Shown one piece after another: positions 38 to 35,143 of a stretch of 36,244 nt of DNA. Position numbers and translations under genes: made by a program. Within the stretch, counting starts at the first letter, position 1, and each line of letters starts with the position of its first letter. The notes beneath the pieces are model-generated. The model saw nothing but the letters and a program-made list of their open reading frames with translations, did not search any database and had not been told where the DNA came from. Origin of the DNA: Sulfurospirillum sp. (lineage in GTDB: Bacteria > Campylobacterota > Campylobacteria > Campylobacterales > QNZT01); contig QNZU01000071.1 of the NCBI GenBank assembly GCA_003978405.1, positions 1-36,244 on the forward strand. The letters are read 5' to 3'.

Positions 38-1264
38 ATGTTACTTATCAAAAATGCAAAACTGACTCAAAAAGATGGTGAAAAAATTTGTGATATCTTG
101 ATAAAAGATGGCAAAATTACAAAAATCCAAAAAGATATCAAAGGTATTGATTGTAAAACTATTGATGCTAAGAATAAGTATCTGCTTCCAGGAATCGTTG
201 ATCTAAATGTCAATCTAAAAGATAGCAGTTTTACATTGGAAAATATACAAAGATTGCAAGAAAAAGCAAAAAGATCGGGTGTTAGTTCACTTATAGTAAG
301 ACCTGATTTTAAACCAAAAGTAGAGAATAGAACAGTTCTGGAACTTTTAAATGAAAAATTGAAAGATTTCGATTTGGATATAAGGTTTGCCGTTGATGCT
401 ATCAAAGATAATGAACTTTTAAATGATATTGCCATCATGCTTGATTATAACAATTCAGCCACAATAGCTGCAAAATCTTTTATAAACAGCAATTTGCTAA
501 GAAGAATCCTACAATACTCACTAATGAAAAACAAGCCATTGTCAATCACTTGTGACAATCCTGACCTAAATGATAATGGGGTGATGCACGAGGGTAAAGT
601 ATCATCAAAACTTGGACTTTTTGGAAGAAGTGCAGTAAGTGAGATCAGTGAAGTTGCAAAGGTTGCCTATATGGCAGAGTATTATGGTGCAAAGACAATA
701 TTTTCCTCACTCTCAACAGCAAAGTCAGTTGAACTGATTTATCATCTAAAATCAGATGGGACACCACTATACAGTGAAGTGTCAATTTTGCATCTTATCT
801 TTGATGATACTGCCTGTGATGATTTTAATACATTTGCAAAAATAGATCCACCGTTAAGAGAGCAAGGTGAAAAAGAGAATTTATTAAAAATGGTGATTGA
901 TGATAAAGTTGACATAATCACATCTCTTCACAGTGCAGTATCACTTTCTAAAAAAGATGTGGCATTTAATGATGCAGAGTATGGAGCTGATGTGCTTGAT
1001 AATTATCTTTCATTATCTTATACATATTTGGTTAAAAGCGGTCACATTACGATGCATAAATTGATGCAACTGCTTAGTTATAATCCTGCCAAAATATTGG
1101 GCTTGAATGATATTGGTGAAGTCAAAGAGGGGTTTAGAGCAAATTTGATGCTTTTTGATCCTAAGCAGATGATATCTATTGATGATAAAAACTCTCTTTT
1201 GCATAATCAAAGACTTTTTGGTAGGGTTACTGATACTATATACAATGGCAGACTCTTAAAGTGA
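38..1264 (+). CDS. Dihydroorotase-like amidohydrolase-fold protein, probably non-catalytic (PyrC-prime type)
   Basis: 408-aa ORF with SD AGGAA upstream. DHOase-like N-terminus (IKNAKL..ILIKDGKI..LLPGIVD), but the HxH metal motif reads D-L-N-V-N (nt 200-214) and the late DHAPH-type motif reads TSLHSAV. Confidence 0.75.
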   Translation: MLLIKNAKLTQKDGEKICDILIKDGKITKIQKDIKGIDCKTIDAKNKYLLPGIVDLNVNLKDSSFTLENIQRLQEKAKRSGVSSLIVRPDFKPKVENRTVLELLNEKLKDFDLDIRFAVDAIKDNELLNDIAIMLDYNNSATIAAKSFINSNLLRRILQYSLMKNKPLSITCDNPDLNDNGVMHEGKVSSKLGLFGRSAVSEISEVAKVAYMAEYYGAKTIFSSLSTAKSVELIYHLKSDGTPLYSEVSILHLIFDDTACDDFNTFAKIDPPLREQGEKENLLKMVIDDKVDIITSLHSAVSLSKKDVAFNDAEYGADVLDNYLSLSYTYLVKSGHITMHKLMQLLSYNPAKILGLNDIGEVKEGFRANLMLFDPKQMISIDDKNSLLHNQRLFGRVTDTIYNGRLLK

Positions 1265-1434
1265 TACAATTTGTAATTTTTAAACTAAATGATATATTTA
1301 TCAAATTGGGACTTTTTTATATAGTTGAATAATTATCCATTTTAATATCACTTTTTCACAAACTGATATTTGAGCAAATATTTTTAACTCTATTTTATAT
1401 ATATTTTGTCGATCTATTACTAGTAAGGTAAAAG

Positions 1435-1839
1435 ATGAATTTTAAAGAACTTAAAAATAGATGCGAACATATAACACTTTTGTATGTTGAAAATGATAAT
1501 GAGATAAGAGAGTTGAAATATTCGATTTTTAGAGATATTTTCAAAAGTGTCTTAGTAGCAAAAGATGCCCAAGATGCCCTAAAGATATATCAATGCAATC
1601 AAATTGATCTTATCATAACTGAGCTTTTTATGCTCAATATGAGTGGTTTTGATATGGTAAAAAAGATTAAAGCAATAGAACCTGATGTGAAAGTAATTGC
1701 TTACTCTTCATTTAGTGAAACTGAATATCTAAGTAAATTTAATTTAAGTGAATTTGATGCTTATATAAGAAAGCCTATAGAAAAAGAGAAACTATTCTCA
1801 ACGATTTATGATGTTATTTCAAGGGAGCGTGTAAATTGA
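1435..1839 (+). CDS. Stand-alone CheY-like receiver domain protein (atypical, Glu at acceptor position)
   Basis: 134-aa ORF with SD AAGG. Receiver landmarks are VEND (acidic pocket), DLIITE-LFMLNMSG (acceptor position is E63, GAG at 1621-1623), IAYSS (Ser/Thr) and YIRKP (Lys-Pro). No output domain. Confidence 0.85.
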   Translation: MNFKELKNRCEHITLLYVENDNEIRELKYSIFRDIFKSVLVAKDAQDALKIYQCNQIDLIITELFMLNMSGFDMVKKIKAIEPDVKVIAYSSFSETEYLSKFNLSEFDAYIRKPIEKEKLFSTIYDVISRERVN

Positions 1840-1844
1840 AAGAG

Positions 1845-1872
1845 TCAAGTCGACTTTTAAAAGCCGACTTGA
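1845..1872. terminator. Hairpin between convergent genes (putative bidirectional terminator)
   Basis: TCAAGTCG (1845-1852) pairs perfectly with CGACTTGA (1865-1872) around a 12-nt A/T-rich loop. It lies between the stops at 1839 (+) and 1889 (-), with T/A runs on both sides. Confidence 0.55.
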
Positions 1873-1888
1873 TAATTTTAAAGTTTAA

Positions 1889-3262
1889 TTAGAAGTTAAC
1901 ACCCAAAGATTTCATAACCTCATGAGTCAAACCACCAATAGCAAGACCATTTTGTTTTTGGTATGCTTTAACTGCCTCTTTAGTAAGTGTTCCATAGATT
2001 CCATCAATTGGTCCACTATATAGACCTTTTGCTTTAAGTGATCTTTGAACACCTCTGATAGTTGATGTTCCCATACTTGATTGACATACAACTTTTTTCC
2101 ATACCACTTTGCTTGGAGATACCATCTCTCTTTTTGTGATAGTTGAGTATTTCTCAGGAATTGTAATTCTCTTAACCTCTGCAGGTTGAACAAGTTTTGT
2201 AACAGTGATGTTTTTGTAAACTGCAGGAATCTCAGTCTCTTTAGTAGTTGCAGGTTTATCAACAACAACTTTTGAAATTGTTCTGTATTGTGCAGGAGTT
2301 ACTATTTTACATACTTGATGACCTGTATATTTTCCGTTAGCTTTCTCTCCAACTTTTACCCATGAGAAAGTAGGATCAGACACTTTTGAAGTAATCGTAT
2401 AAGTTGAAGTTTGCTCAGCTACTGGAACTCTCTCTACAGTTGCAGGTGCAGCAAGCTTTCTAACTTTGATAGTTTTGTAAACCGCTGGAATATCAATAAC
2501 TTTTGTAGTAGCAGGTTTATCAACTACTCTTTTTGTGATAGTTTTGTATCTAGCTGGGATAGTAACTAAACACATTACGCCACAATCATTGTTTCTTCCG
2601 TTACATTGTGATTTTTTCCACATTGTTTTCTCTGGCTCAACAAGAATTTTCTCAGTTACAGTTTTATAAGTAGCTGGAATTTTTACAATTCTTTGACTTG
2701 CCTCTTTTACAAGAACTTTCTCTTCCTCATAAGTATATTTTGCAGGAACAACTTTTAGTTTCTCATAACCCTCTTTAGATACATATGTTTGAGTCTCACT
2801 CTTATATTTTGCAGGAGTAAAATACTCTCTATAACATGTACCTGGAGCCATACTATCGATATCAGCTCCACCTGTTTTAGCAGCTGCTAAGATCTCTGGA
2901 GATACAGGTATACCATTTTTAAGACCTGTTTGCCATTTTACTTCTTCCTCTTTTACAAGAACTTTTTCAGTTGTTGTTTTAAATGTTGCAGGAATAACTG
3001 ATAGTCTTGTTGAAGCTTCTTGAACTAGAACTTTCTCAGTTCCTGTTCCATACTTTGCAGGAATGATTTGTAATCTTTCACTTGCCTCTTGTGATAAAAC
3101 TTTTTCTGTGTGAGTTTCAAACTTTGCGGGAATGATAACTTTTGCATAACACTCACCCGGCTGAGCATTTGGTATTACTACCTCCATGTCGTCAGCAACT
3201 AGACTACCTGTTGCTACAGTCAAAGATACGGCTAAGACTGCTGATAATTTGTAATTCTTCAT
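1889..3262 (-). CDS. Secreted repeat protein with C-terminal peptidoglycan-binding (PG_binding_1-like) domain
   Basis: 457-aa ORF with SD AAGGA 6 nt upstream. Signal peptide MKNYKLSAVLAVSLTVATGSLVA-DD, about 11 copies of [IVT]P[AE]x[YF]xTxTEKVLV-like units, and C-terminal GLYSGPIDGIYGTLTKEAVKAYQKQNGL typical of PG-binding domain 1. Confidence 0.9.
   Translation of the reverse strand: MKNYKLSAVLAVSLTVATGSLVADDMEVVIPNAQPGECYAKVIIPAKFETHTEKVLSQEASERLQIIPAKYGTGTEKVLVQEASTRLSVIPATFKTTTEKVLVKEEEVKWQTGLKNGIPVSPEILAAAKTGGADIDSMAPGTCYREYFTPAKYKSETQTYVSKEGYEKLKVVPAKYTYEEEKVLVKEASQRIVKIPATYKTVTEKILVEPEKTMWKKSQCNGRNNDCGVMCLVTIPARYKTITKRVVDKPATTKVIDIPAVYKTIKVRKLAAPATVERVPVAEQTSTYTITSKVSDPTFSWVKVGEKANGKYTGHQVCKIVTPAQYRTISKVVVDKPATTKETEIPAVYKNITVTKLVQPAEVKRITIPEKYSTITKREMVSPSKVVWKKVVCQSSMGTSTIRGVQRSLKAKGLYSGPIDGIYGTLTKEAVKAYQKQNGLAIGGLTHEVMKSLGVNF
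2087..3151 (-). repeat. Intragenic degenerate tandem repeats (coding)
   Basis: Residues 38-392 of the 1889-3262 protein. The repeat is visible at DNA level too, e.g. gtagttgcaggtttatcaacaac near 2240 versus gtagtagcaggtttatcaactac near 2505. Four super-modules each run from a Cys-x(3-5)-PAx[YF] start to a [VMS]W[QKV]K end. Confidence 0.8.
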
Positions 3263-3295
3263 TCTACATCCTTTTAAATTTTTATAGACTCGGAA

Positions 3296-3301
3296 ATTAT
3301 A
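3296..3301 (-). promoter_or_regulatory. Putative -10 box (TATAAT) for the repeat-protein gene
   Basis: The reverse complement of attata at 3296-3301 is TATAAT, preceded by TG. It lies about 33 nt upstream of the ATG at 3262. Confidence 0.35.
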
Positions 3302-3612
3302 CAGTCATAATCTTAGATTGACAATAAAATTATTTGAATAATTAAATAGTTTAAAATATATTTAATATTACAGTTTTTTATGTTTTGTATTTACTTTTAA
3401 ATTTGTAATATTTGAAAATATGATTAAATGAGCTTATTTCTACTATTTATATTATATGTATAGAAAAGTTTGAATTATTTTAGTATTTGTTTGAGAAAAA
3501 ACCTGTTTAATTAGATTTATATTATCTCTAACTTATGTAAGATTTCTCCTTTTCAAAGATAGGAAAGAAAAAGCTATATTGTTGTAAAATCCCAAAAATT
3601 GAATAAAATTAA

Positions 3613-4647
<1,035 letters not shown>

Positions 4648-21049: not shown

Positions 21050-21958
21050 TTGAAAATTCCGCACATTCCTGTTCTATTAGATGAGATTGTAGAGGTATTT
21101 AAGGATATCAAAGGAGAGTATATTGTTGATTGTACTGTCGGATATGGTGGGCACAGTGAGGCACTGTTAAAAAGATATCCCGATAAAAAGCTCATTTGTA
21201 TAGATCAAGATGATGAAGCACTCAAGTTTTCAAAAGCAAGATTAGCTCCTTTTAAAGATAGAGTTATTTTCAAAAAAGGACGCTTTTCTTCACATATTAG
21301 CCAACTCAAAGAGCTTGATATAGGTGGAATTTTGGCAGATATTGGGGTATCTTCACTCCAATTAGACCAAGCTGATAGAGGGTTTCGATTTGATTCAAAT
21401 AGACTTGATATGAGAATGGATACCAATATAAATTTTGATGCAAAGCAGTTGATAAACAGTTACACTCAAAGTGATCTTCAAAGAGTGCTAAAAGAGTATG
21501 GTCAGATAAGAGAGTATAAAAAGATGGCTTCACTGATCATACAAAACAGACCTTTTGATTCAGCCAAGGAGTTGAGTTCGCTTATAGCCAAACATTTTAG
21601 AAGTTCAAAAATTCATCCTGCTACACTTCTTTTTCAAGCTCTAAGAATTGAGGTCAATGATGAGATAGGAGAGTTAAGAAGACTGCTTCAATCTATCAAA
21701 AATTTAAACATATCTAATTTAGTAGTAGCTATAATCTCTTTTCACTCACTTGAGGACAAAGAGGTAAAGAGTGCATTTAAAGAGTGGAGCCAAAACTGTA
21801 TCTGTCCAAAAGAAGCGATAAAGTGTGAGTGTGGCGGTGATTCCTCTTTGGGGAAGATCTTAACAAAAAAGCCCATTACCCCTACAGGAGAAGAGATTGC
21901 AAACAATCCAAGATCAAGAAGTTCAAAACTCAGAGCATTTAGATTTGCCGATAGATGA
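21050..21958 (+). CDS. rsmH: 16S rRNA (cytosine1402-N4)-methyltransferase
   Basis: 302 aa with a TTG start. Motifs HIPVLL, TVGYGGHS, IDQDDEAL, DIGVSSLQLD, SFHSLEDK and NPRSRSSKLRA. Confidence 0.95.
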   Translation: MKIPHIPVLLDEIVEVFKDIKGEYIVDCTVGYGGHSEALLKRYPDKKLICIDQDDEALKFSKARLAPFKDRVIFKKGRFSSHISQLKELDIGGILADIGVSSLQLDQADRGFRFDSNRLDMRMDTNINFDAKQLINSYTQSDLQRVLKEYGQIREYKKMASLIIQNRPFDSAKELSSLIAKHFRSSKIHPATLLFQALRIEVNDEIGELRRLLQSIKNLNISNLVVAIISFHSLEDKEVKSAFKEWSQNCICPKEAIKCECGGDSSLGKILTKKPITPTGEEIANNPRSRSSKLRAFRFADR

Positions 21959-22262
21959 AAAAGAGATTTTGCTTGAAGAGTATGATAAAGAGCAAAGCAG
22001 AGTTAAAAATATAACATTTAAAGAGCTTCTATTTTTATATCTTCTTATAGTGATAATTTTATCGATAGTGGTACCAAAGATCTATTTTAGCAATCAAATA
22101 TACTATATTTCAAAAGAGATAAACAGTATGTATCATAAATATACTGCCTTAAAAGAGGAAAAAGATGCACTCTTAAGAGAGATTGAGGCCTTGAAATATA
22201 GGATCAATGTCCAGGATGAACTCTCTAATGACAATGAAGAAGAGAGCGATTTGGATCAGTAA
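21897..22262 (+). CDS. FtsL-like small bitopic division protein (start uncertain)
   Basis: Follows rsmH as ftsL does in dcw clusters. It has a single TM (LLFLYLLIVIILSIVV), a heptad-like LKEEKDALLREIEALKY segment and an acidic tail. The ATG at 21897 overlaps rsmH by 62 nt, and an in-frame TTG at 21945 is an alternative start. Confidence 0.55.
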   Translation: MQTIQDQEVQNSEHLDLPIDEKEILLEEYDKEQSRVKNITFKELLFLYLLIVIILSIVVPKIYFSNQIYYISKEINSMYHKYTALKEEKDALLREIEALKYRINVQDELSNDNEEESDLDQ

Positions 22263-22932
22263 TAAAATTATAACCGTTATAGATAGTAAAGATACCGTAA
22301 GCTATCACAGTCAATGATGCCAATTTTAAGATTAGATTTCTTGTAGAGCTCTGCTTTAAAAATCCTACAAAAAAGCCCATACCAAACATTGCAGGAATGG
22401 TACTAAGACCAAAGAGAAGCATTACTAAAGCTCCCCAAAACGGACTTGCCGTGCTTGCTGCTGTGATTGCAAAGAAATAGACAAATCCGCAAGGCAAAAG
22501 ACCGTTTAGCATCCCAAGCATGAAAAATGAACCAAGAGATTTTGATCTTAAAAATGTTCGAAAACTATCTTGGTACCACTTGCTTTTTGAAAAAGTGTGC
22601 TCAATCAAAGTCAAAAACTTTACCTTGCCAAGCAGTGATAGTCCGGTTAAGATCATCAAAACCCCGGCAATTACCAAAAGTGTTCCGTTTGTGTAGTTGT
22701 TAAATGTAGCTACACCTCCAATATATCCAAATATCGCTCCAAGTATTGTGTAGGTCAAAACTCTTCCAAATGAGTAAAAAAGATGGGATAGAATTTGATT
22801 AAGTTTTGATACTTTATCATCAATCTTGGTACTTGAGTATGCCACTACTATTCCTCCACACATACCAACACAGTGACTAAATGATCCTAGAAAAGCTATT
22901 GTTATGATGGTTAGTAGATTGATTGCATCCAT
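22225..22932 (-). CDS. DsbD_2/UreH-like (often annotated TauE/SafE) membrane protein with HCxxMCGG motif, putative metal transporter
   Basis: 235 aa, about 6 TM. Motifs GSFSHCVGMCGGIV and NGLLPCGFVY, and a C-terminal ..LLHCH. Confidence 0.7.
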   Translation of the reverse strand: MDAINLLTIITIAFLGSFSHCVGMCGGIVVAYSSTKIDDKVSKLNQILSHLFYSFGRVLTYTILGAIFGYIGGVATFNNYTNGTLLVIAGVLMILTGLSLLGKVKFLTLIEHTFSKSKWYQDSFRTFLRSKSLGSFFMLGMLNGLLPCGFVYFFAITAASTASPFWGALVMLLFGLSTIPAMFGMGFFVGFLKQSSTRNLILKLASLTVIAYGIFTIYNGYNFITDPNRSLLHCH

Positions 22933-22935
22933 TTT

Positions 22936-23430
22936 TTAAATTCCAAGTACCTTTTTCCTAATGATTGGATTTGTCAAATCTTCACCTCTTAGAACTCTGT
23001 TTTTCATCTGGTTAAAATTTATATATCCATCTTTTTTCATCCCATAAGCTCCAAATCCGTGTCTCATAGGGGTTGCTTCATTGATGCTGTACCAAGCCTT
23101 GGTCGCGTCGATCCAACTATTTTTATCTTTTGCCCATACCCACATCTTTGCATGATCGAGTTTTTTATCTTTTAGCCACAAGATCATACACCCTACATCA
23201 TCAAATACCCATGTTTTACCACTTTTTGAAGCAACTTGAGCAGAGTGTGAAATATCATCTATGATCATTTTGCATTGCGGATCTTGAAGATGATGCAGAT
23301 TTAGATCGAGAGGTTTTTGCTCCAAATTTCCCTTATAGACACTGACCATCTGCTCCTTTTTAGAGAGTGAGACAAAGATCAGTGCCACAATTGCTATAAA
23401 GATAAATATAGGAATCAGTTTTTTTAACAT
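22936..23430 (-). CDS. Membrane-anchored NosL-like protein (single-Cys variant)
   Basis: 164 aa with an N-terminal TM anchor. QCKMIIDD...SGKTWVFDDVGCMILW resembles the NosL CxxCGM...FDDIGCM pattern, with the first Cys missing. Confidence 0.5.
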   Translation of the reverse strand: MLKKLIPIFIFIAIVALIFVSLSKKEQMVSVYKGNLEQKPLDLNLHHLQDPQCKMIIDDISHSAQVASKSGKTWVFDDVGCMILWLKDKKLDHAKMWVWAKDKNSWIDATKAWYSINEATPMRHGFGAYGMKKDGYINFNQMKNRVLRGEDLTNPIIRKKVLGI

Positions 23431-23431
23431 C

Positions 23432-24598
23432 TTAGTCCAAAAGTCTTACACTGATGATACCCTCTATTTTGATCAGCTCAACTAGTGTATCATTTGAAAT
23501 ATCACCCTCTATATCAATGAGGTTATAGGCAATCTCATCTCTGCTTTTGTTTAGCATATCTATGATATTTATCTGCTTGTTTGCCAAAAATGTTGTGATA
23601 TTTCCTATCATATTTGGAATATTCTCATTTGTGATACATATTCTTTTGTTTCCACATTTAGGCATAGAGCATTGTGGGAAATTGACAGAGTTATTGATAT
23701 TTCCGTTTTCAAGAAAATCTTTTATCTCATCAACAGCCATAACAGCACAATTCTCTTCACTCTCAATTGTAGAGGCTCCAAGATGTGGGATTGCGATAAC
23801 TCCATCGGTATTTAAAAGTTCATCTTGAGGAAAATCTGTAATATATTTTTTGACCTTTTTATTTTTAATCGCATCAAAGATATCTGCATTGTTAACCAAT
23901 TCACCTCTTGAAAAGTTGATGATACTAACACCATCTTTCATCATCGCAAGAGTTTTGGCATTGATCATCTCTTTGGTACTATCAAGCAAAGGCACATGTA
24001 TTGTGATGTAATCGACCTGTTTTAAGAGTGTCTCCAGACCTGTTGCTTTTTCTACTTCACCAGAGAGCATCCATGCAGCATCTACTGATATATATGGGTC
24101 ATAACCTATCACTTTCATTCCAAGAGAGAGTGCATCATTTGCCACAAGTGCTCCGATAGCTCCTAGACCTATAACTCCCAAAGTTTTGCCCTTGATCTCA
24201 TTACCTGCAAAATTTGATTTGTTCTGCTCTACAAGAGCGGGGACATCTTCACCTTTGCCTTTTAGAGAGTTAACCCAGTTTACCCCACCTATGATATCTC
24301 GACTTGCCAGAAGCATTGAAGCAATCACGATCTCTTTAACAGCATTTGCATTAGCTCCTGGGGTATTGAAAACGACAATTCCCTCTTTGGTGCACTTTTG
24401 AACCGGAATATTGTTTGTTCCCGCACCGGCTCTTGCTATCGCTTTTAGGTTTGGACCAAATTTATAATCGTGTAGTTTGAAACTTCTAAGCACGATAGCA
24501 TCAGGATCACTAAACTCACTTGCCACCTCATATCTATCTTTATCAAATCTATCAAGACCTTTTGGTGAAATCTTATTTAGAGTTAAGATTTTAAACAT
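23432..24598 (-). CDS. serA: D-3-phosphoglycerate dehydrogenase (with C-terminal ACT-like domain)
   Basis: 388 aa. NAD-binding GVIGLGAIG, plus ITIHVPL and RGELV motifs. TGATG overlap with serC. Confidence 0.93.
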   Translation of the reverse strand: MFKILTLNKISPKGLDRFDKDRYEVASEFSDPDAIVLRSFKLHDYKFGPNLKAIARAGAGTNNIPVQKCTKEGIVVFNTPGANANAVKEIVIASMLLASRDIIGGVNWVNSLKGKGEDVPALVEQNKSNFAGNEIKGKTLGVIGLGAIGALVANDALSLGMKVIGYDPYISVDAAWMLSGEVEKATGLETLLKQVDYITIHVPLLDSTKEMINAKTLAMMKDGVSIINFSRGELVNNADIFDAIKNKKVKKYITDFPQDELLNTDGVIAIPHLGASTIESEENCAVMAVDEIKDFLENGNINNSVNFPQCSMPKCGNKRICITNENIPNMIGNITTFLANKQINIIDMLNKSRDEIAYNLIDIEGDISNDTLVELIKIEGIISVRLLD

Positions 24599-25677
24599 CA
24601 GCTATTCTCCATTTGAAATTTTTTCATCAATTCAACCAAAGCTTCAACTCCTTCAATAGGCATAGCATTGTAAATAGAAGCTCTAAGACCTCCGATACTT
24701 CTGTGTCCTTTGAGTCCTATCATACCAGATTTTGTAGCCTCATCGATCAGTTTTGCCTCAAGCATCTCATCTTTGTCTTTGATATTAAACGATACATTCA
24801 TCAGGCTTCTTGATCCCTCTTTTGCATGGGCTACATAAAAACCCTCAGAATTGTCAATCGCATCATAAAGCAGTTTAGCCTTGATCTGATTTAGTTTGTC
24901 AATCTCTTCTATTCCGCCTTTTGATTTGATCCAGTGTAGTATCAAATTGAGTATATAGATGCCAAAAGTAGGAGGTGTGTTGTAGAGTGAGTTTGCATCT
25001 GCATGGGTTTTGTATTTTAGCATTGATGGAGTGTTCTTTTTTGCTCTCTCAAGAAGTGCATTGTTAATAATGACAATTGTCACACCTGAAGGTCCCGCAT
25101 TTTTTTGGGCTCCGGCATACAAAAGATCAACTCTGTTCCAGTCAACCTGATACGAGAAGATATCACTTGAAGCATCGACAACCAAAGGTGCAGCAGTTTC
25201 TGGATACTCTTTGTATTGGGTGCCGTATATGGTGTTGTTTGAAGTAATATGACAAAAATCAGCCTCATCACTAAAAAGCACTTCAGGTATATGATCATAA
25301 CTGCTATCTTTTGAACTTGCAACAATTCTGTGCTCAATTCCCTGAATTTTTGCCTCTTTGATAGCTTTTGTTGACCAGCTGCCTGTATCTGCATATTCAG
25401 CCACTCCTCCATTGGAGAGATTCATTGGTACCATTGCAAACTGCATCGAAGCCCCGCCTTGCAAAAACAAGATTGAGTAATCCTGCGGAACTTTATACAA
25501 CTCTCTAATAAGAGATATAGCTTCATTGTGGACATCATCATAAAGTTTAGATCTGTGTGATGCCTCCATAATCGACATACCGCTACCTCTAAAGTCAATA
25601 AGCTCCTCTTGAACCTGCTCTAAGACCTCCAAAGCTATTGTTGAGGGACCTGCTCCAAAATTATAAACTCTATGCAT
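24598..25677 (-). CDS. serC: Phosphoserine aminotransferase
   Basis: Starts MHRVYNFGAGPS, with SD AGGAG 5 nt upstream of the ATG at 25677. The track ORF extends to 25734, but that would run across the TGCTATAAT promoter box. Confidence 0.93.
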   Translation of the reverse strand: MHRVYNFGAGPSTIALEVLEQVQEELIDFRGSGMSIMEASHRSKLYDDVHNEAISLIRELYKVPQDYSILFLQGGASMQFAMVPMNLSNGGVAEYADTGSWSTKAIKEAKIQGIEHRIVASSKDSSYDHIPEVLFSDEADFCHITSNNTIYGTQYKEYPETAAPLVVDASSDIFSYQVDWNRVDLLYAGAQKNAGPSGVTIVIINNALLERAKKNTPSMLKYKTHADANSLYNTPPTFGIYILNLILHWIKSKGGIEEIDKLNQIKAKLLYDAIDNSEGFYVAHAKEGSRSLMNVSFNIKDKDEMLEAKLIDEATKSGMIGLKGHRSIGGLRASIYNAMPIEGVEALVELMKKFQMENS

Positions 25678-25701
25678 CAACACTCCTAAAATTTTTTGCT
25701 T

Positions 25702-25710
25702 ATTATAGCA
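25702..25710 (-). promoter_or_regulatory. Extended -10 promoter TGcTATAAT for serC-serA(-downstream genes)
   Basis: The reverse complement of attatagca (25702-25710) is TGCTATAAT. It lies 24 nt upstream of the serC ATG and 7 nt after the stop of the upstream membrane-protein gene. Confidence 0.55.
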
Positions 25711-25717
25711 AGATTGA

Positions 25718-26686
25718 CTAAAGCCAAACACCATTTCTAATATAGTAACTAATTGGAAAATATATTAAAATAGTTAAAAAAATAATAATCAGATATATAA
25801 AATAGACAAAGTATGAATTTTGGGTTTTGCCTATAAAGAGTTTTAAAAAAGCATTTGCATTTCCCAAAATCAAAAGTGCCAAAAGCACTCCCCAGATGAG
25901 ATATCCTATGTAGTAGTATTGAGATTGGAGCATACAAAATGGGCAGATATGTGTCGGTACCTCATATATATAGATACCAAAAAAGTAAAGAACGGCATAA
26001 TATGCACAGATTGAAAAGAGTATGGTACCAAATGAGAGTGCAAAACTGTTTTTAAAATATGCAAAATAGATCGTTAGAGTAGCCAGTAGAAACAAAATTA
26101 TCAAAAGTTTTGTATTATCCAAACCAAACGGCAGAGCATTATCTCCGCTTAGACCGAAGATTACCGAACAGCAACTGACACTTCTGTTTAAATCGATATG
26201 GAAAAAGTAGGCAATTTGAAGATAAAAGCTAAAAACCGCAATAGCATAGATGAAGATAAAAAGAAGATATTTTCTTTTTATGAAAGGATAGTCATAAGCC
26301 TTTTGATCCTCGTTGTTGATAAAGAGCCAAAACATTCCAAAAACTATAAAAACAATCCTGAAAATCTCCAATACTCCTCCATAACCATTCTCTTTGATAA
26401 CTCCAGCAGCACACATGGCTCCTGGTACTATATCGCTTAGTGAATCGATCGTATATGCAAAATAGGGAAGTAAAACTATCTTTGATACCAGTGCGACAGT
26501 GATGATTAAGCTAATTAGATAGTTTTTCATTTGCAATCGGTACTGCTTTTTTGTATTGTTATGAAAATCCCAATCTTTAAGAATAAAAAGGGCATTTACA
26601 AAAGCAAAAGTTAGAGTAAGCAGTATCACAAAGTCAGAAAAAAGAAGTATCAAAAGCGGTGTTTGAAGGAGTAATTTGCTATCCAT
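25718..26686 (-). CDS. Polytopic (about 8 TM) membrane protein of unknown function with CC and CPFC motifs
   Basis: 322 aa with an 8-nt overlap with the ABC ATPase gene. Loop cysteines are C92 (GAMCAAG), C172-C173 (SVSCCS) and C248/C251 (HICPFCM). I recognise no family. Confidence 0.8.
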   Translation of the reverse strand: MDSKLLLQTPLLILLFSDFVILLTLTFAFVNALFILKDWDFHNNTKKQYRLQMKNYLISLIITVALVSKIVLLPYFAYTIDSLSDIVPGAMCAAGVIKENGYGGVLEIFRIVFIVFGMFWLFINNEDQKAYDYPFIKRKYLLFIFIYAIAVFSFYLQIAYFFHIDLNRSVSCCSVIFGLSGDNALPFGLDNTKLLIILFLLATLTIYFAYFKNSFALSFGTILFSICAYYAVLYFFGIYIYEVPTHICPFCMLQSQYYYIGYLIWGVLLALLILGNANAFLKLFIGKTQNSYFVYFIYLIIIFLTILIYFPISYYIRNGVWL

Positions 26687-27347
26687 CTGTAATCTTTACT
26701 ATCTTGGCTTTTTCTATATAGACTCTTTTGTCAACAAAATCGATATGATCAAAGATTGGATCATGAGTTGCTACGATGATGGTCTTGCCCATCTTTTTGA
26801 AATCTTTAAGCATATTTATAACTGTTTGTGAATTTTCCTGATCCAAACTAGCTGTCGGTTCATCAAATAGTAAAATTTTGGGATCGTTGGCAATAGATCT
26901 TGCGATTGCAACTCTTTGTCTTTCACCTCCTGAGAGGTTTTGAACGATTGAGTCTTTCTTATGTTCAATATTTGCCAATCTTAAAACCTCATTTACTCTT
27001 GTATCAATCTCTTTTTGGGAGAGTCTAAGTGGTATCAGAGGGATTGAGACATTCTCTTTTGCACTTAAATTTTCAATCAAAGCAAAATTTTGCAAAGTAA
27101 ATCCTATATGATTTAATCTAAATTGACTTGCATGGTGATCAGGGAGTTTGGATGTTGAAACAGAGTCGATTTTTACCTCCCCGCTGCTTGGCTTCATCAA
27201 AGATGCTATGATTGACAGTAGTGTTGATTTCCCGCTTCCACTTACCCCCTTTAGGATTACAAACTGGGAAGTTGGGATTATAAGATTGATATTTTTTAAT
27301 GCACTAAATTCGTTAAAGTTTTTATTTATATCGATTAACTCTATCAT
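26679..27347 (-). CDS. ABC transporter ATP-binding protein (MacB/LolD/FtsE-like)
   Basis: 222 aa. Walker A GVSGSGKST, signature LSGGERQRVAIARS, Walker B ILLFDEPTASLD. ATGA overlap with the permease gene. Confidence 0.93.
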   Translation of the reverse strand: MIELIDINKNFNEFSALKNINLIIPTSQFVILKGVSGSGKSTLLSIIASLMKPSSGEVKIDSVSTSKLPDHHASQFRLNHIGFTLQNFALIENLSAKENVSIPLIPLRLSQKEIDTRVNEVLRLANIEHKKDSIVQNLSGGERQRVAIARSIANDPKILLFDEPTASLDQENSQTVINMLKDFKKMGKTIIVATHDPIFDHIDFVDKRVYIEKAKIVKITDG

Positions 27348-28498
27348 TTTACCGCCTCTGTGGGATCAGTTATGGCAATTTTCCAGATTGGTACCAATTG
27401 AGATAAAAGATAAGGAATAATAAAAAGAAGAAAAATTTCAAAGAGCAAAAGTTTATTGATATACGGATAAAAGATATACTCTTTTGGCAATCCGTTAAAG
27501 CCCAAAAAGATTTGACTCAAAAACGGGGCATTAAGATAATAGACATAAATATATGCCAAAATCACACCGATAACAAATGCCAACACTCCTATCATCAAAG
27601 ATTGAGTCAATTTTAGTTTGATTATATCTCCAACACTCCAGCCAACCATCTTCAAAATAGCCACATCTCTTTTTTGACTGGAGTTTGCAACTGTAAATCT
27701 TTGATACAAAAGCAACATAAAGGTAAAAATAACAATCATATACAAAAGCAAAAATATACCGCTTTTAAAATTAAAAAAATTCTCATAAGAATTTATCAAA
27801 TCTCTCTTGTCAATTACCAATGCGTCAAAAAAGAGGGACTTTAGTTTGTATTTTATAGTATCTAATTCACTTTTGTTTGGAACAAAAACTGTGATATCAC
27901 TAAAATAATCCTCTTTGGTACCAATTATATCTCTTGCTGTATTTGAGTTCGTTATTACAATATCACTCAAAGAGATGAAACTGTTTTTTGGCAAAAGAGC
28001 TTCTGTTTTTACCTTTATCTTTTTTCCTTCAGGTGAGAAAAAGTGGTAATACTCTTTAAAGTAGTGTTTTTGCATATACTTTTGAAAACTTGGTGAGATA
28101 AGCATAGTGTTATTTTCAAGCTGATCTTGTTGAGTCAAACCAGACAATATCTTCTCATCAGAGTCTATGCCCCAGATGGTAATAAAATAGCTACTGTTTA
28201 AAAGATGGTATCTTCCGTAAACTCTTCCCTTTGCCTTGTAGACTCCTCTTATCTTTTCAATCTTTTTCAGACTCTCTTTTTCGATATCTATATTGTGACC
28301 GCCCCTAAATTTTTGGATGATAAAATCTCCCTCATTTACAAGAGCATTTTTTAGTGAATATTGAAGTGAAGAGCTCAAAAACAAGAATGAACAAAGAAGA
28401 GTAACAAAAGCAGTTGATATAAAAAATACCCCGATATCTCTGGAACGATGCTTGTGAAGATCGAGTATGACAAAGTTGAAAAATGGAATTTTACTCAT
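27344..28498 (-). CDS. FtsX/MacB-type ABC permease (TM1, large periplasmic domain, 3 C-terminal TMs)
   Basis: Topology and C-terminal FtsX-like region (VAILKMVGWSVGDIIKL...) fit the family. The ATG at 28498 has SD GAGGGG 7 nt upstream, while the track start is the ATG at 28513. Confidence 0.85.
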   Translation of the reverse strand: MSKIPFFNFVILDLHKHRSRDIGVFFISTAFVTLLCSFLFLSSSLQYSLKNALVNEGDFIIQKFRGGHNIDIEKESLKKIEKIRGVYKAKGRVYGRYHLLNSSYFITIWGIDSDEKILSGLTQQDQLENNTMLISPSFQKYMQKHYFKEYYHFFSPEGKKIKVKTEALLPKNSFISLSDIVITNSNTARDIIGTKEDYFSDITVFVPNKSELDTIKYKLKSLFFDALVIDKRDLINSYENFFNFKSGIFLLLYMIVIFTFMLLLYQRFTVANSSQKRDVAILKMVGWSVGDIIKLKLTQSLMIGVLAFVIGVILAYIYVYYLNAPFLSQIFLGFNGLPKEYIFYPYINKLLLFEIFLLFIIPYLLSQLVPIWKIAITDPTEAVK

Positions 28499-28688
28499 AG
28501 ACAAACCCCTCATAATCTATCTCTTTTACAATAGGCGTTGTTTGGTACTCAAAAATCATTTTGCTAAAGATTCCATCAGGAGATCGATAAAAAAGGTATT
28601 TGTGATGAGGTTGGCAGGATAAGAGGTAAAAGAATATTATAAAAACTGCACTAAAAATAGATAGATATATCTTGCTAAGTGTGGTAAT
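28491..28688 (-). CDS. Candidate unannotated 65-aa lipoprotein with ATT start
   Basis: Open frame between TAA (28692-28694) and TAA (28491-28493). SD AAAGGA (28700-28695) lies 6 nt before the ATT at 28688. Predicted ITTLSKIYLSIFSAVFIIFFYLLS-C, i.e. a Lys n-region, a hydrophobic core and an LLSC lipobox. The first ATG in frame is only at 28559. Confidence 0.35.
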   Translation of the reverse strand: MTTLSKIYLSIFSAVFIIFFYLLSCQPHHKYLFYRSPDGIFSKMIFEYQTTPIVKEIDYEGFVYE

Positions 28689-28700
28689 GTTTTATCCTTT

Positions 28701-29132
28701 TTAATAAAGCATATCTTTTGTGATTTGTGAAAATCTTATCACTCTTTTGCCCTCATGATCATCTTTAAAAGCTTTGGCATCATCCTCTGTTAAAAAGGGA
28801 ATCAACTCAACACCCATAGGTCCATACACATTTGAGCCACTCACATAGTAAGCCTTTTTTGCATCGATACTTTTAAGGGAGTAGTAATCAATAACCGTTA
28901 TGGATGAGATCTTTTTTATCTGGTGCTTAAAACGGGTCGGTTCAAGATAAAACTTCATCATATCCTTTACCCCGTCAAAATAGAGCGAACTATTATCTTC
29001 ATATCTGATTGTTGCTACCCATTTTGGATATTTTGACACCCACATTCCGCACACTGGACATTTTGCTTTTTTTGGTATCGTATCGGCTTGAAGAAGACTC
29101 ATTGATAGAACTAATGCCAAAAATAGTCTCAT
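28701..29132 (-). CDS. Periplasmic NosL-family (copper chaperone-like) protein
   Basis: 143 aa with SD AAGGAAAA. Signal peptide MRLFLALVLSMSLLQA, then KCPVCGMWVSKYPKWVA...YFDGVKDMMKFY, a NosL-like CxxCGM pattern. Confidence 0.65.
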   Translation of the reverse strand: MRLFLALVLSMSLLQADTIPKKAKCPVCGMWVSKYPKWVATIRYEDNSSLYFDGVKDMMKFYLEPTRFKHQIKKISSITVIDYYSLKSIDAKKAYYVSGSNVYGPMGVELIPFLTEDDAKAFKDDHEGKRVIRFSQITKDMLY

Positions 29133-29242
29133 ATCAGATTTTCCTTTTTGATTTTAGTTTATCACAGTTGTGTTAAAACAGTGTTAAACATTTTACTTGA
29201 ACTTTGATAGAATTGTAATACTAAGTTATAAAGGAGACAATA

Positions 29243-29584
29243 GTGAAAAAGAGTATTCTATTTGCAGGATTTTTTCTGTTTTTGGTGATTGGTTGTACCC
29301 AAGAGACACAAAACAAACTAGGAAGAGCTATCCAAAACTGGACAGGAACCAATGGTGTGCTTGAAGTCTATGCCGGTGAGAAGCTGGTAAAAAAGTTTAT
29401 TAAAATAGACAAACTTTCCACTGCAGTTAGCACTGAAGGAGATGAGAGTCGTCCATATCGGTTTGGATACGGAGTTTTGGATGAGAACTTCAATGGCAAA
29501 GAAGACAAGGGTGAGAAGAGGGTCTATTTTGAGTTTTCTGATTATTCGACTTCATATATATTTTATGAGGATCCTCACCACTAA
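29243..29584 (+). CDS. Small lipoprotein of unknown function
   Basis: 113 aa. Strong SD AAGGAG and a GTG start, with lipobox LVIG-C. TAATG overlap with dapE. Confidence 0.75.
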   Translation: MKKSILFAGFFLFLVIGCTQETQNKLGRAIQNWTGTNGVLEVYAGEKLVKKFIKIDKLSTAVSTEGDESRPYRFGYGVLDENFNGKEDKGEKRVYFEFSDYSTSYIFYEDPHH

Positions 29585-31966: not shown

Positions 31967-32704
31967 ATGAATTTTATCATCTTTACTGATCTTGACGGAA
32001 CACTTTTAAATCACGATGACTACTCTTTTAGTGATGCTTTGCCACTGATAGAAAAGATCAAAGCTAGAAATATTCCACTTATATTTACAACTTCCAAAAC
32101 AAAAAAAGAGTGTGAAATACTACAAAACAAAATGGATATAGATATGCCTTTTATAGTAGAAAACGGTGCGGCTGTCTATGGAATGGGAGATGTTGATATT
32201 TTGGGAGTTAGGGTTGGTTTGATTAGAGAATTTTTGGAGCCTCATAAAGATAGGTACCACATCAGAGCATTTTATGATATGAGTGTAGAAGAGATTATGA
32301 AGCAGACCGGATTTGATAAGGAAAATGCAACCCTAGCAAAAGATAGAGAGTTTTCTCAACCCTTTTTGATTGAAGATGAGAGTGAGCTTGAAGAGTTTAG
32401 ACTATTGGCAAAAAAGAGTGGATTTAAGATACTAAAGGGAGGCAGGTTTTATCATCTTGTATCTCAAGATCAGGATAAGGGCAGGGCAGTCTTAAGAGTC
32501 TTAAATAAGATAGGAAAAGGTAAAAAATCTATCGCACTTGGTGATAACTATAATGATCTTGATATGTTAAAAGTTGTAGATATTCCTATATTGGTACCAT
32601 ATAAAAAAGATAGCTTTATAGATGCTAAACTGCCAAATATGATAAAAGCTCCATATACCGGTGCAAAGGGGTGGGCTAAGGCTTTGGGAGAGATCATTGG
32701 ATAA
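31967..32704 (+). CDS. HAD-IIB phosphatase of the mannosyl/glucosyl-3-phosphoglycerate phosphatase (MPGP) family
   Basis: 245 aa. Motif I is IIFTDLDGTLLNHDDYSF, followed by IFTTSKT and GDNYNDLDML. The context next to a GpgS-like gene favours a GpgP role. Confidence 0.8.
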   Translation: MNFIIFTDLDGTLLNHDDYSFSDALPLIEKIKARNIPLIFTTSKTKKECEILQNKMDIDMPFIVENGAAVYGMGDVDILGVRVGLIREFLEPHKDRYHIRAFYDMSVEEIMKQTGFDKENATLAKDREFSQPFLIEDESELEEFRLLAKKSGFKILKGGRFYHLVSQDQDKGRAVLRVLNKIGKGKKSIALGDNYNDLDMLKVVDIPILVPYKKDSFIDAKLPNMIKAPYTGAKGWAKALGEIIG

Positions 32705-33934: not shown

Positions 33935-35143
33935 ATGTCAGATTTTTTTCAAAATGGAGTGATTACAACTATACCAAGATTAGGGAATAGATCGCTTGAA
34001 GATATGGAGAGTGAACTTGATAAACTCTCAAAAAGAAGAAATATGGTTTTAATTTTACCGGCACTTTATAGTGAGTTTGAAACACCTGCTATGCACAATA
34101 TTATAGAGGAATTAAAACATATTAAATATCTTTATAAGATAGTTTTGGGACTTGATGGGGCAAACAAAGAGCAGTTTGAAGAGGTGAAGCAGATCATGTC
34201 AGTTTTGCCGACTCCTGTTGATGTGATTTGGAATGATGGTCCAAGAGTTATGGAGCTTAAAAAAGAGCTTGATGAAGCTGGTTTTCAAAGCACAGATGTG
34301 AAGGGAAAAGGGTTGAATGTTTGGATGATGATTGGCTATGTGTTATCTGATTCGAATGCTTATGCGATAGCACTTCATGATTGTGATATTGTAAACTACA
34401 CAAGAGAGATACCAGCACGACTGTTTTATCCGATAGTCCACCCTGCATTTGACTTTGAGTTTAATAAAGGTTACTACTCAAGAGTTACCGATAAACTTCA
34501 TGGAAGAGCTACAAGGCTCTTTTATACACCACTTCTAAAATCTATAGAGAGGGTTTTTGGTAAGAGTAGATATCTTGATTATATGTCATCTTTTAGGTAT
34601 GCACTCTCAGGTGAGTTTGCCTTTATCAGATCACTTGCTCGTGGTATTAGAATCTCTCCAACTTGGGGACTAGAAGTCTCTACACTTTCAGAAATCTACA
34701 ACAACACCTCAAAAAAGAGGATTTGCCAGAGTGAGATTATGGAGAGTTATGAGCATAAACATCAAGAGATGGGAGAAAACAGCAACAGTGGTGTATCAAA
34801 GATGGCAAAAGAGATAGCAGAAACTATCTTTAGGATCATGTCGCAGTCTGGAGTTAGTTTTGGAAGTGCCAAATTTAATGCACTTTTGACCACTTACTAT
34901 GAGGAGTCAAGAAGAGCTATTGAGCAGTATTCAGCCGTCTCAGAGGTAAATGGTTTAAAATACTCAAGAAAGAGTGAGATAGAGGCGATCAGAGGTTTTG
35001 TTGATGCTCTAAGAGAGGCAAATGAAGAGTTTAACAAAGATCCTATGGGTGTCCCTTCACTTGCTGCTTGGACAAATGTCAGAAGTGTTTTGCCAAGTTT
35101 CACATACTACTACAACAAGGCGGTAAGGTTGGATAACAGATGA
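33935..35143 (+). CDS. Glucosyl-3-phosphoglycerate synthase-like retaining glycosyltransferase (GT81-like)
   Basis: 402 aa with SD AAGGAG. FFQNGVITT N-terminus and an ALHDCDIV DxD-type motif. Neighbours are an MPGP-type phosphatase and a glycerate kinase. Confidence 0.65.
   Translation: MSDFFQNGVITTIPRLGNRSLEDMESELDKLSKRRNMVLILPALYSEFETPAMHNIIEELKHIKYLYKIVLGLDGANKEQFEEVKQIMSVLPTPVDVIWNDGPRVMELKKELDEAGFQSTDVKGKGLNVWMMIGYVLSDSNAYAIALHDCDIVNYTREIPARLFYPIVHPAFDFEFNKGYYSRVTDKLHGRATRLFYTPLLKSIERVFGKSRYLDYMSSFRYALSGEFAFIRSLARGIRISPTWGLEVSTLSEIYNNTSKKRICQSEIMESYEHKHQEMGENSNSGVSKMAKEIAETIFRIMSQSGVSFGSAKFNALLTTYYEESRRAIEQYSAVSEVNGLKYSRKSEIEAIRGFVDALREANEEFNKDPMGVPSLAAWTNVRSVLPSFTYYYNKAVRLDNR

Follow-up and report, generated by a model that had tools for sequence, protein, structure and literature searches.

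The locus described here lies on a 36,244-nucleotide contig of a Sulfurospirillum sp. metagenome-assembled genome (MAG; contig QNZU01000071.1, assembly GCA_003978405.1), and this whole stretch of DNA is referred to below as the window. Five genes on its minus strand encode a NosL-family protein, a small protein, an FtsX-type permease, the ATPase of the same ATP-binding cassette (ABC) transporter and a membrane protein with eight transmembrane (TM) helices, which we call TM8. They had been noticed in an earlier reading of the bare sequence, called here the original prediction, which described co-directional genes packed with overlaps. Inspection of the coordinates agrees: the FtsX stop and the ABC start share 4 nt (ATGA, 27344-27347), and the ABC end and the TM8 start share 8 nt (26679-26686). 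We consider the chances to be about even that this cassette is an uncharacterised envelope machine which handles Cu(I) or a similar thiophilic cargo on the periplasmic face of the inner membrane, i.e. a relay between NosL and TM8 that would be driven by ATP. The five genes are:

28701-29132, minus strand: NosL-family periplasmic metallochaperone, 143 aa (PF05573; NosL matches in the PDB)
28491-28688, minus strand: small open reading frame (ORF), 65 aa, a conserved 66-codon frame with a probable ATT start at 28686-28688
27344-28498 (longest ORF to 28513), minus strand: FtsX-type permease, type VII ABC, MacB/LolCDE fold (PF02687; AlphaFold 2 (AF2) model and Foldseek)
26679-27347, minus strand: ABC ATPase, partner of FtsX, 222 aa (PF00005)
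25718-26686, minus strand: TM8, 322 aa, eight TM helices, without a Pfam or NCBIfam family (AF2 model)

The conservation of the gene order was followed in 82 non-redundant Campylobacterota loci gathered with TM8, with three duplicate contigs set aside; the denominators vary by feature, and single loci are designated by L numbers. FtsX, ABC and TM8 follow one another without interruption in 70 of 71 loci, the sole exception being L065:2892-6128, where about 3.2 kb separate the ATPase from TM8. Of 69 loci, 51 have a close homolog of NosL ahead of FtsX. Two further genes, for a 164-167 aa protein (N164) and for a DsbD_2-family protein, are frequent downstream: N164 directly follows TM8 in 61 of 75 loci, and the DsbD_2 gene follows N164 in 39 of 70. 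The order NosL-small-FtsX-ABC-TM8 is also found in MAGs of Nitrospirota, Desulfuromonadaceae, Desulfatiglandales and Geobacteraceae, in which TM8 is only about 25% identical. Since the order is kept across phyla at this distance, the five genes are best seen as an ancient conserved core. The neighbourhood comparison thus bears out the five-gene module of the original prediction, in Campylobacterota and beyond, as far as the cross-phylum core is concerned, whereas in the present lineage the module has seven genes, N164 and DsbD_2 lying beyond the range that had been considered. Loci of the Poseidonibacter/Aliarcobacter type (L058, L030, L052, L057, L059, L063, L064, L067 and L083) keep small-FtsX-ABC-TM8. 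In L058 a 327-aa beta-propeller-like protein is encoded two genes upstream.

The NosL protein reaches 113.2 bits on PF05573 against a cutoff of 24, and its CPVCGM motif (C25-P-V-C28-G-M30) follows an N-terminus, MRLFLALVLSMSLLQA/DT, that resembles a type I signal peptide, as had been predicted. Its PDB matches are the NosL structures 7og7/7osf (E 1.6e-9), and C25, C28, M30 and M106 align with Cys59, Cys62, Met64 and Met145 of the S. denitrificans protein (SdNosL). The strictly conserved Cu(I) ligands of SdNosL are Cys62, Met64 and Met145 (PMC8457098); their counterparts C28, M30 and M106 are invariant in 20 module NosLs, and the window protein probably binds Cu(I) at this retained Cys/Met site. 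There is no Cys ahead of C25 that could form a lipobox, unlike in canonical NosL. Nor is the gene encoded with nosZ or nosDFY, whereas relatives of the module do adjoin nosFYL. The protein is 143 aa long here as against 222-232 aa in many relatives (L002:3222-3899, L004:2739-3437, L029:6184-6852), and the longer forms carry an additional N-terminal region of about 80 aa. In Sulfurospirillum multivorans, adaptation of the cells to pyruvate fermentation was accompanied by a 31-fold higher abundance of SMUL_3232, a "NosL family protein" that may or may not be the NosL of a cassette like this one (PMC6242987).

The residues of NosL bear on the choice of metal. That the same machine serves another thiophilic metal, such as Zn, Ni, Co or Cd, appears to us quite improbable. 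The DsbD_2 family sits in a superfamily with various metal permeases, which would suit a wider choice of metals. SdNosL also binds Zn(II) (PMC8457098), but its Zn ligand Cys88 is Asp in the window NosL, while Cys, Met and Met, the ligands of Cu(I), are kept, and every informative neighbour of the cassette (nos, SCO1/SenC, HMBD) is related to copper.

The permease matches PF02687 with 34 bits and the ATPase PF00005 with 114 bits. The longest permease ORF begins at the ATG at 28513, and the database gene call P0418 (384 aa) begins at M6, i.e. at 28498. According to the AF2 secondary structure and Foldseek the permease has four TM helices, the first two of which, TM1 and TM2, are separated by a large periplasmic domain. 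The top Foldseek matches of its AF2 model (predicted local distance difference test, pLDDT, 82) are LolE/LolC/MacB/YtrF/HrtB/BceB with E from 4e-14 to 1e-8, and they cover LolE/LolC/MacB over their whole length and also periplasmic domains solved in isolation. Distant homologs of the cassette FtsX also match MacB_PCD. In other words, the family models and the fold agree with the MacB/LolCDE-like permease and ATPase that had been proposed, and the FtsX domain, its layout and the adjacent cognate ATPase are those of a type VII ABC system. Identity with LolCDE, MacAB-TolC or FtsEX was considered and rejected: the NCBIfam scores of the permease are far below the cutoffs (LolCE 32.9 vs 362, LolC 22 vs 473 and FtsX_actino 20 vs 250 bits) and the defining partners are missing, no adaptor or outer-membrane protein gene for a MacA/TolC-, LolA/B-, EnvC- or BceS-type partner being present in or beside the cassette at any of the loci examined.

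The same scores speak against a generic MacB/Lol-like exporter of lipoproteins, peptides or bacteriocins that stands beside NosL by chance, a view which is already disfavoured and which we regard as very improbable. It is true that some sources name the permease a "lipoprotein release permease" and that the closest NCBIfam models of the ATPase are FtsE, LolD and the lactococcin-972 type, but each of these stays under its cutoff. Moreover, chance adjacency is excluded by the order of the five genes, which is kept across phyla even where TM8 has diverged to about 25% identity.

The small ORF is absent from the ORF listing of the window because it has no ATG, GTG or TTG start. It opens at the ATT at 28686-28688, which is 6 nt downstream of an AGGA and two codons past an in-frame stop, and its 3' end overlaps the FtsX start region. 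The original prediction had described the product as a hidden mini-lipoprotein. The gene itself is real: an ORF is present at the same position in 65 of 71 related loci, far above chance, and the products have in common a TM helix at the N-terminus and a C-terminal motif that reads roughly ...EPR...YP...I..FVY (the conserved tail is ...IDYEGFVYE in the window). The lipoprotein was rejected, as only two of the 67 homologs, those of the window and of L015, possess a lipobox-like Cys; the LLSC of the window corresponds to ...LLSIPHP in L007, the closest relative. Since this Cys is not conserved, the product is predicted to be a bitopic, single-pass membrane protein with a conserved C-terminal tail.

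The start of the small ORF is unusual well beyond the window. At 30 of 67 loci a canonical start is missing ahead of the TM helix. In 25 of these the N-terminus I-[TS]-x-L-S-K is marked by a conserved Ile codon, which is ATC, ATA or ATT. It is preceded in 23 cases by a Shine-Dalgarno-like AGGA, GGAG or AAGG at a distance of 5-9 nt, and in L007, L052, L058 and L063 an in-frame stop directly adjoins it on the 5' side. The other five share a conserved ACG-AAA, which in four loci is found 6-7 nt downstream of GGAG and in L041 downstream of AGG. The loci with apparent near-cognate starts also include L015, L016, L018 and L028. A canonical start was rejected on the grounds of the 30 loci without one and of the four in which a stop abuts the Ile codon. 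Near-cognate initiation accounts for these observations most economically and would explain why the gene is not annotated in the window. The combination of near-cognate starts with well-placed Shine-Dalgarno sequences suggests selection for weak or regulated initiation.

TM8 is identical to the NCBI entry DSZ06_03615. As the original prediction had stated, the 322-aa protein cannot be assigned to a family: it has no match in Pfam or NCBIfam, and its AF2 model, which consists of eight long helices (pLDDT 88, predicted TM-score 0.86), has no neighbour in the PDB by Foldseek (best E 0.3, TM-score about 0.2). A Pfam search to E 5 with 34 diverse homologs gave no consistent family, with a single VKOR match at E 0.015. 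Profile comparisons by hhalign of the N-terminal with the C-terminal half, of TM8 with the DsbD_2 protein (probability 0.3%) and of TM8 with FtsX detected neither a relation nor an internal repeat. TM8 homologs form 985 clusters at 50% identity (E up to 1e-3). We consider TM8 a probable new family of eight-TM membrane proteins, for which no fold relative was found in the PDB.

The conserved residues of TM8 are concentrated in a few motifs. C92, C172-C173, H246, C248-P-F-C251 and M252 are invariant within Campylobacterota. Across phyla, at about 25% identity, the residues that stay invariant are C92 (in the sequence G-A-M-C, i.e. M91-C92), C172-C173 and C248, and H246 is found in at least 90% of the sequences. 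Lys and Arg, counted over the 34 homologs, amount to 11.1 in the odd loops as compared with 3.5 in the even loops, and every Cys motif is in an even loop: M91-C92, C172-C173 and H246-x-C248 fall in the predicted periplasmic loops 2, 4 and 6, respectively. As the positive charges are concentrated in the odd loops, an N-out/C-out topology is predicted in which the Cys motifs all lie on the periplasmic face. This is in accordance with the earlier placement of C92, C172-C173 and the C248-x-x-C251 pair opposite the Lys/Arg-rich loops, and the residue positions themselves were confirmed. A resemblance to DsbB or VKOR, which had been suggested as well, found no support. The window protein has no Pfam match, neither DsbB nor VKOR is among the Foldseek matches, and the second Cys of CPFC varies in distant homologs; this identity was rejected. 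CopD/PcoD, DsbD/CcdA and DsbD_2 were likewise rejected, as none of the 34 members matched them in Pfam to E 5.

On the far side of TM8 the minus strand carries three further features:

23432-25734 (probable serC start 25677), minus strand: serC and a serA-like dehydrogenase, housekeeping, outside the conserved module (NCBIfam)
22936-23430, minus strand: N164, membrane-anchored, putatively divergent NosL-fold protein, 164 aa (sub-threshold PF05573; profile-profile comparison)
22225-22932, minus strand: DsbD_2-family polytopic membrane protein, 235 aa (PF13386)

N164 stays below the threshold of PF05573 with 17.9 bits, and an hhalign profile-profile comparison with the module NosL gives a probability of 96.9% (E 1.4e-10). 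Its conserved residues are C53-x-M55, D77-D78-x-G80-C81 and M122, and it is probably a membrane-anchored, divergent form of the NosL fold. The DsbD_2 protein has 178.7 bits on PF13386 against a cutoff of 24.9, its invariant residues are H20-C21-x-x-M24-C25, H50, M93, C148, M171 and C234, and H112 is present in 95% of homologs. Both genes appear to be Campylobacterota additions to the five-gene core; DsbD_2 was found neither in the cross-phylum core nor in the Sulfurovum loci. The serC and serA-like genes (NCBIfam: serC 491 bits, PGDH 249 bits) are inserted between TM8 and N164/DsbD_2 only in the window and in L007 (7629-9883; a Sulfurospirillum MAG) among the 82 loci. As all these genes are on one strand and tightly packed, the serine-biosynthesis genes appear to share a transcript with the module, which is peculiar to this Sulfurospirillum lineage.

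The cysteines of TM8, taken together with the DsbD_2 gene, would also fit a thiol-redox or sulfur relay, in which TM8 is a carrier of thiol-disulfide or persulfide, DsbD_2 supplies reducing equivalents and the ABC pair drives the exchange of partners. Such a relay might keep the cysteines of a chaperone reduced, or deliver sulfide, e.g. for the CuZ [4Cu:2S] centre, and we know of no established source of the CuZ sulfide. C92, the vicinal C172-C173 and C248 are invariant on the predicted periplasmic side, DsbD_2 (PF13386) adjoins the Campylobacterota module and thioredoxin-fold genes adjoin its relatives. We nevertheless think this unlikely. Neither Pfam nor profile comparison nor fold relates TM8 to DsbB, VKOR, DsbD or CcdA, the CxxC pair is not kept family-wide, DsbD_2 is confined to part of the loci as described above, and the Met and His residues that flank the TM8 cysteines fit the ligation of a metal.

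The surroundings of the cassette in other genomes point to copper or thiol chemistry. The Sulfurovum module comes directly after nos genes, also in the complete genome of strain CS9, and the upstream order is cytochrome c, a 4Fe-4S protein resembling NosH, nosF, a lipoprotein resembling N164, nosY, nosL, a PAS protein and two further NosL paralogs. In Geobacteraceae a SCO1/SenC gene and an additional NosL precede the cassette, and one TM8 cluster holds a TM8-Sco fusion or adjacent pair. L088, a Desulfatiglandales-like MAG, has a second set upstream (316-4274) that consists of an HMBD protein, a NosL-type protein, an FtsX permease and a thioredoxin-fold protein. The NosL-type protein of this set has 303 aa with two NosL-type CxxC-x-M modules, and the FtsX permease has 423 aa.

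The lipoprotein between nosF and nosY in the Sulfurovum-type clusters (L029:2890-3462, L002:41-526, L048:2751-3224, L068:1444-1923) contains a C-x-x-C-x-M motif on what is probably a divergent NosL fold; no named accessory gene of nos clusters that corresponds to it is known to us.

The nos clusters of S. cavolei have been reported to contain an unexplained five-gene insertion after nosL, which is made up of a hypothetical gene, an ABC permease, an ABC ATPase and two further hypothetical genes (PMC4794192). Matched by gene order alone, we infer that the insertion is small-FtsX-ABC-TM8-N164. NosB is drawn separately from the inserted hypothetical ORFs in the same paper (PMC4794192). No description of the cassette was found in the literature searched, and this insertion is the sole trace of it. 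As no paper was found, we regard the cassette as undescribed, i.e. as a new protein family and an unannotated subunit within what would be an ABC-powered periplasmic copper-chaperone system.

No nos operon was found in the window itself. Pfam scans of its large ORFs (33935-35143 and 31967-32704 left out) gave no nosZ, nosD, nosR or nosY, in line with what had been read from the sequence, and NosZ is not encoded in the window since the longest ORF, 492 aa, is too short. The description of the module as an orphan therefore holds for this window, but the Sulfurovum modules, and apparently those of S. cavolei, are within or adjoin nos clusters. The other large ORFs that were scanned are exclusively housekeeping genes by Pfam, ilvC, tatC, queA, folP, ftsA/Z, hobA, dapE and pgi among them. 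A scan for promoters and terminators over 21900-29400 remained at the level of chance (33 promoter-like sites vs 28 expected, 3 terminator-like sites vs 3.7), and Rfam and tRNA scans across the window found nothing. At 29243-29584 on the plus strand a 113-aa predicted lipoprotein (signal sequence ending in ...LVIGC) without a family match is encoded divergently from NosL and abuts the dapE-like M20 peptidase gene.

Whether the cassette supplies copper or removes it can be weighed on the same surroundings. A copper/silver (soft-metal) detoxification system would use the type VII ABC to expel or sequester periplasmic Cu(I) caught by NosL and TM8, as MacB-type pumps do. Genes for a membrane-fusion adaptor or an outer-membrane channel accompany the cassette at none of the loci examined, a metal-sensing regulator is not consistently adjacent, and the repeated siting in nos biogenesis clusters as well as the adjacency of SCO1 favour supply. 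The probability we assign to detoxification is accordingly small, notwithstanding the MacB/LolCDE fold, the HMBD gene upstream in L088, which is typical of Cu/Ag efflux contexts, the weak match of DsbD_2 to the ArsG efflux-permease model and the occurrence of the cassette in strict anaerobes with few cuproenzymes.

If the cassette is a copper relay, it could work in the following way. The secreted NosL would bind Cu(I) at the Cys/Met site whose ligands are given by the alignment, and TM8 would offer a thiolate-rich site on the periplasmic surface, formed from the three loops with M91-C92, C172-C173 and H246-x-C248. FtsX2-ABC2, with the fold seen in the model, would act as an ATP-driven mechanotransducer that does not carry the cargo through the membrane; it would force the uptake or release of a tightly bound ion between TM8 and NosL. 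FtsX is taken to force the exchange of the ion rather than to ligate it because its periplasmic domain has no conserved Cys in 64 homologs. The small bitopic protein, whose translation is coupled to that of FtsX and often begins at a weak near-cognate codon, may be the adaptor between the motor and its partners. In Campylobacterota, N164 and the DsbD_2 permease may add a route between cytoplasm and periplasm for the metal or for reducing equivalents. The output would be Cu(I) for periplasmic or membrane cuproenzymes, e.g. N2O reductase, in anoxic or sulfidic habitats where Cu is scarce.

Several points weigh against this proposal. Copper as the cargo is suggested solely by the homology of NosL and by the neighbouring genes, and nos genes are not nearby in the window and at many other loci. 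C251 of TM8 is replaced by Asp, Asn or Ala in distant homologs, i.e. the CxxC is not a family-wide feature, and the four invariant cysteines could equally well form two structural disulfides. There is no obvious metal site in the periplasmic domain of FtsX, where M137 alone is conserved. At the Poseidonibacter-type loci NosL, N164 and DsbD_2 are not nearby, so the core may work with other partners. In which direction the ion is transferred, and what part the small protein plays, is guesswork. The idea of an undescribed periplasmic metal or thiol system, with which the original prediction had concluded, is upheld in its core at the level of sequence analysis, since TM8 matches no characterised family, the five genes are co-conserved, the Cys motifs share one predicted face and NosL passes PF05573. 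The copper- and thiol-related neighbours (nosFYL, SCO1/SenC, HMBD, thioredoxin and DsbD_2) point the same way, while the function is still conjecture.

A bolder version, which we put forward tentatively and with some doubt, is that of a phylum-spanning metal relay, in which a type VII ABC with a non-AUG small subunit loads or unloads a tetrathiolate membrane protein of a new fold. It would be the missing step that brings Cu(I), or the sulfide of CuZ, to NosL-type chaperones and to the periplasmic cuproenzymes of anaerobic, sulfidic bacteria. The cassette bears on the question of how NosL and the other chaperones of the periplasm obtain their copper, above all where sulfide makes free Cu scarce, and the maturation of N2O reductase limits a major sink of a greenhouse gas. 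With NosL, an ATP-driven motor and a Cys-rich membrane protein side by side, the cassette is a genetically testable candidate for the missing copper step. If the relay is real, mechanotransmission by type VII ABC systems would extend to metal trafficking, and TM8 would define a new family of membrane proteins, with about 1,000 clusters at 50% identity and without a fold relative in the PDB. The conserved near-cognate starts of the small subunit (AUU, AUC, AUA and ACG) would moreover be a clean natural case for the study of non-AUG initiation.

Several known systems share part of this design. CopC/CopD (PcoC/PcoD, YcnJ) combines a periplasmic Cu chaperone with an inner-membrane protein of eight predicted TM helices (PMC7558416). 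The pairing of a chaperone with an eight-TM protein is the same in the cassette, but no similarity between TM8 and CopD could be detected, the ligand-type residues conserved in TM8 are rich in Cys and the cassette adds an ABC motor. NosL has been described as structurally homologous to MerB (Taubner 2006, as cited in PMC7558416). In the Mer relay (MerP to MerT/MerC) a periplasmic CxxC protein passes a soft metal to the vicinal cysteines of a membrane protein, which resembles the proposed step between NosL and TM8. TM8 is unrelated to MerT/MerC in sequence or fold; all of its conserved cysteines are predicted to be periplasmic, it has no cytoplasmic acceptor pair, and MerT needs no ABC motor.

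The P19/Ftr1-linked genes Cj1660-Cj1665 (FetABCDEF) of Campylobacter jejuni encode a periplasmic metal-binding protein, an FtsX-type ABC, a polytopic membrane protein and thioredoxin-fold proteins. The likeness is by description only: P19 and the membrane partners differ from those of the cassette, and the context is that of iron uptake. With MacB, LolCDE, FtsEX, HrtBA, BceAB and YtrEF the cassette shares the four-TM fold, the periplasmic domain between TM1 and TM2 and the separate ATPase. Type VII ABC systems act as mechanotransducers, and the expected logic is the same, i.e. cytoplasmic ATP hydrolysis would drive periplasmic work on a partner or on a substrate of the outer leaflet. The fixed partners of the cassette, NosL, the small membrane protein and TM8, set it apart from them, and this combination was not found described.

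The remaining comparison is with NosDFY-NosL, which Mueller et al. are said to have presented in Nature in 2022 as an ATP-driven Cu relay. The permease of the cassette is of the FtsX/MacB type (type VII) and not an ABC-2-type NosY; in place of the NosD beta-helix carrier there are the small bitopic protein and the Cys-rich TM8; the window NosL is not a lipoprotein, and the cassette also occurs far from nos genes and in lineages that showed none in its vicinity. In both systems, nevertheless, a Cu(I) chaperone of the NosL family shares its locus with an ABC pair that works, or in the cassette would work, in the periplasm without transport of a solute, and the two systems meet in the genome: the Sulfurovum module adjoins nosF-nosY-nosL, and in S. 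cavolei it apparently lies inside the nos clusters.

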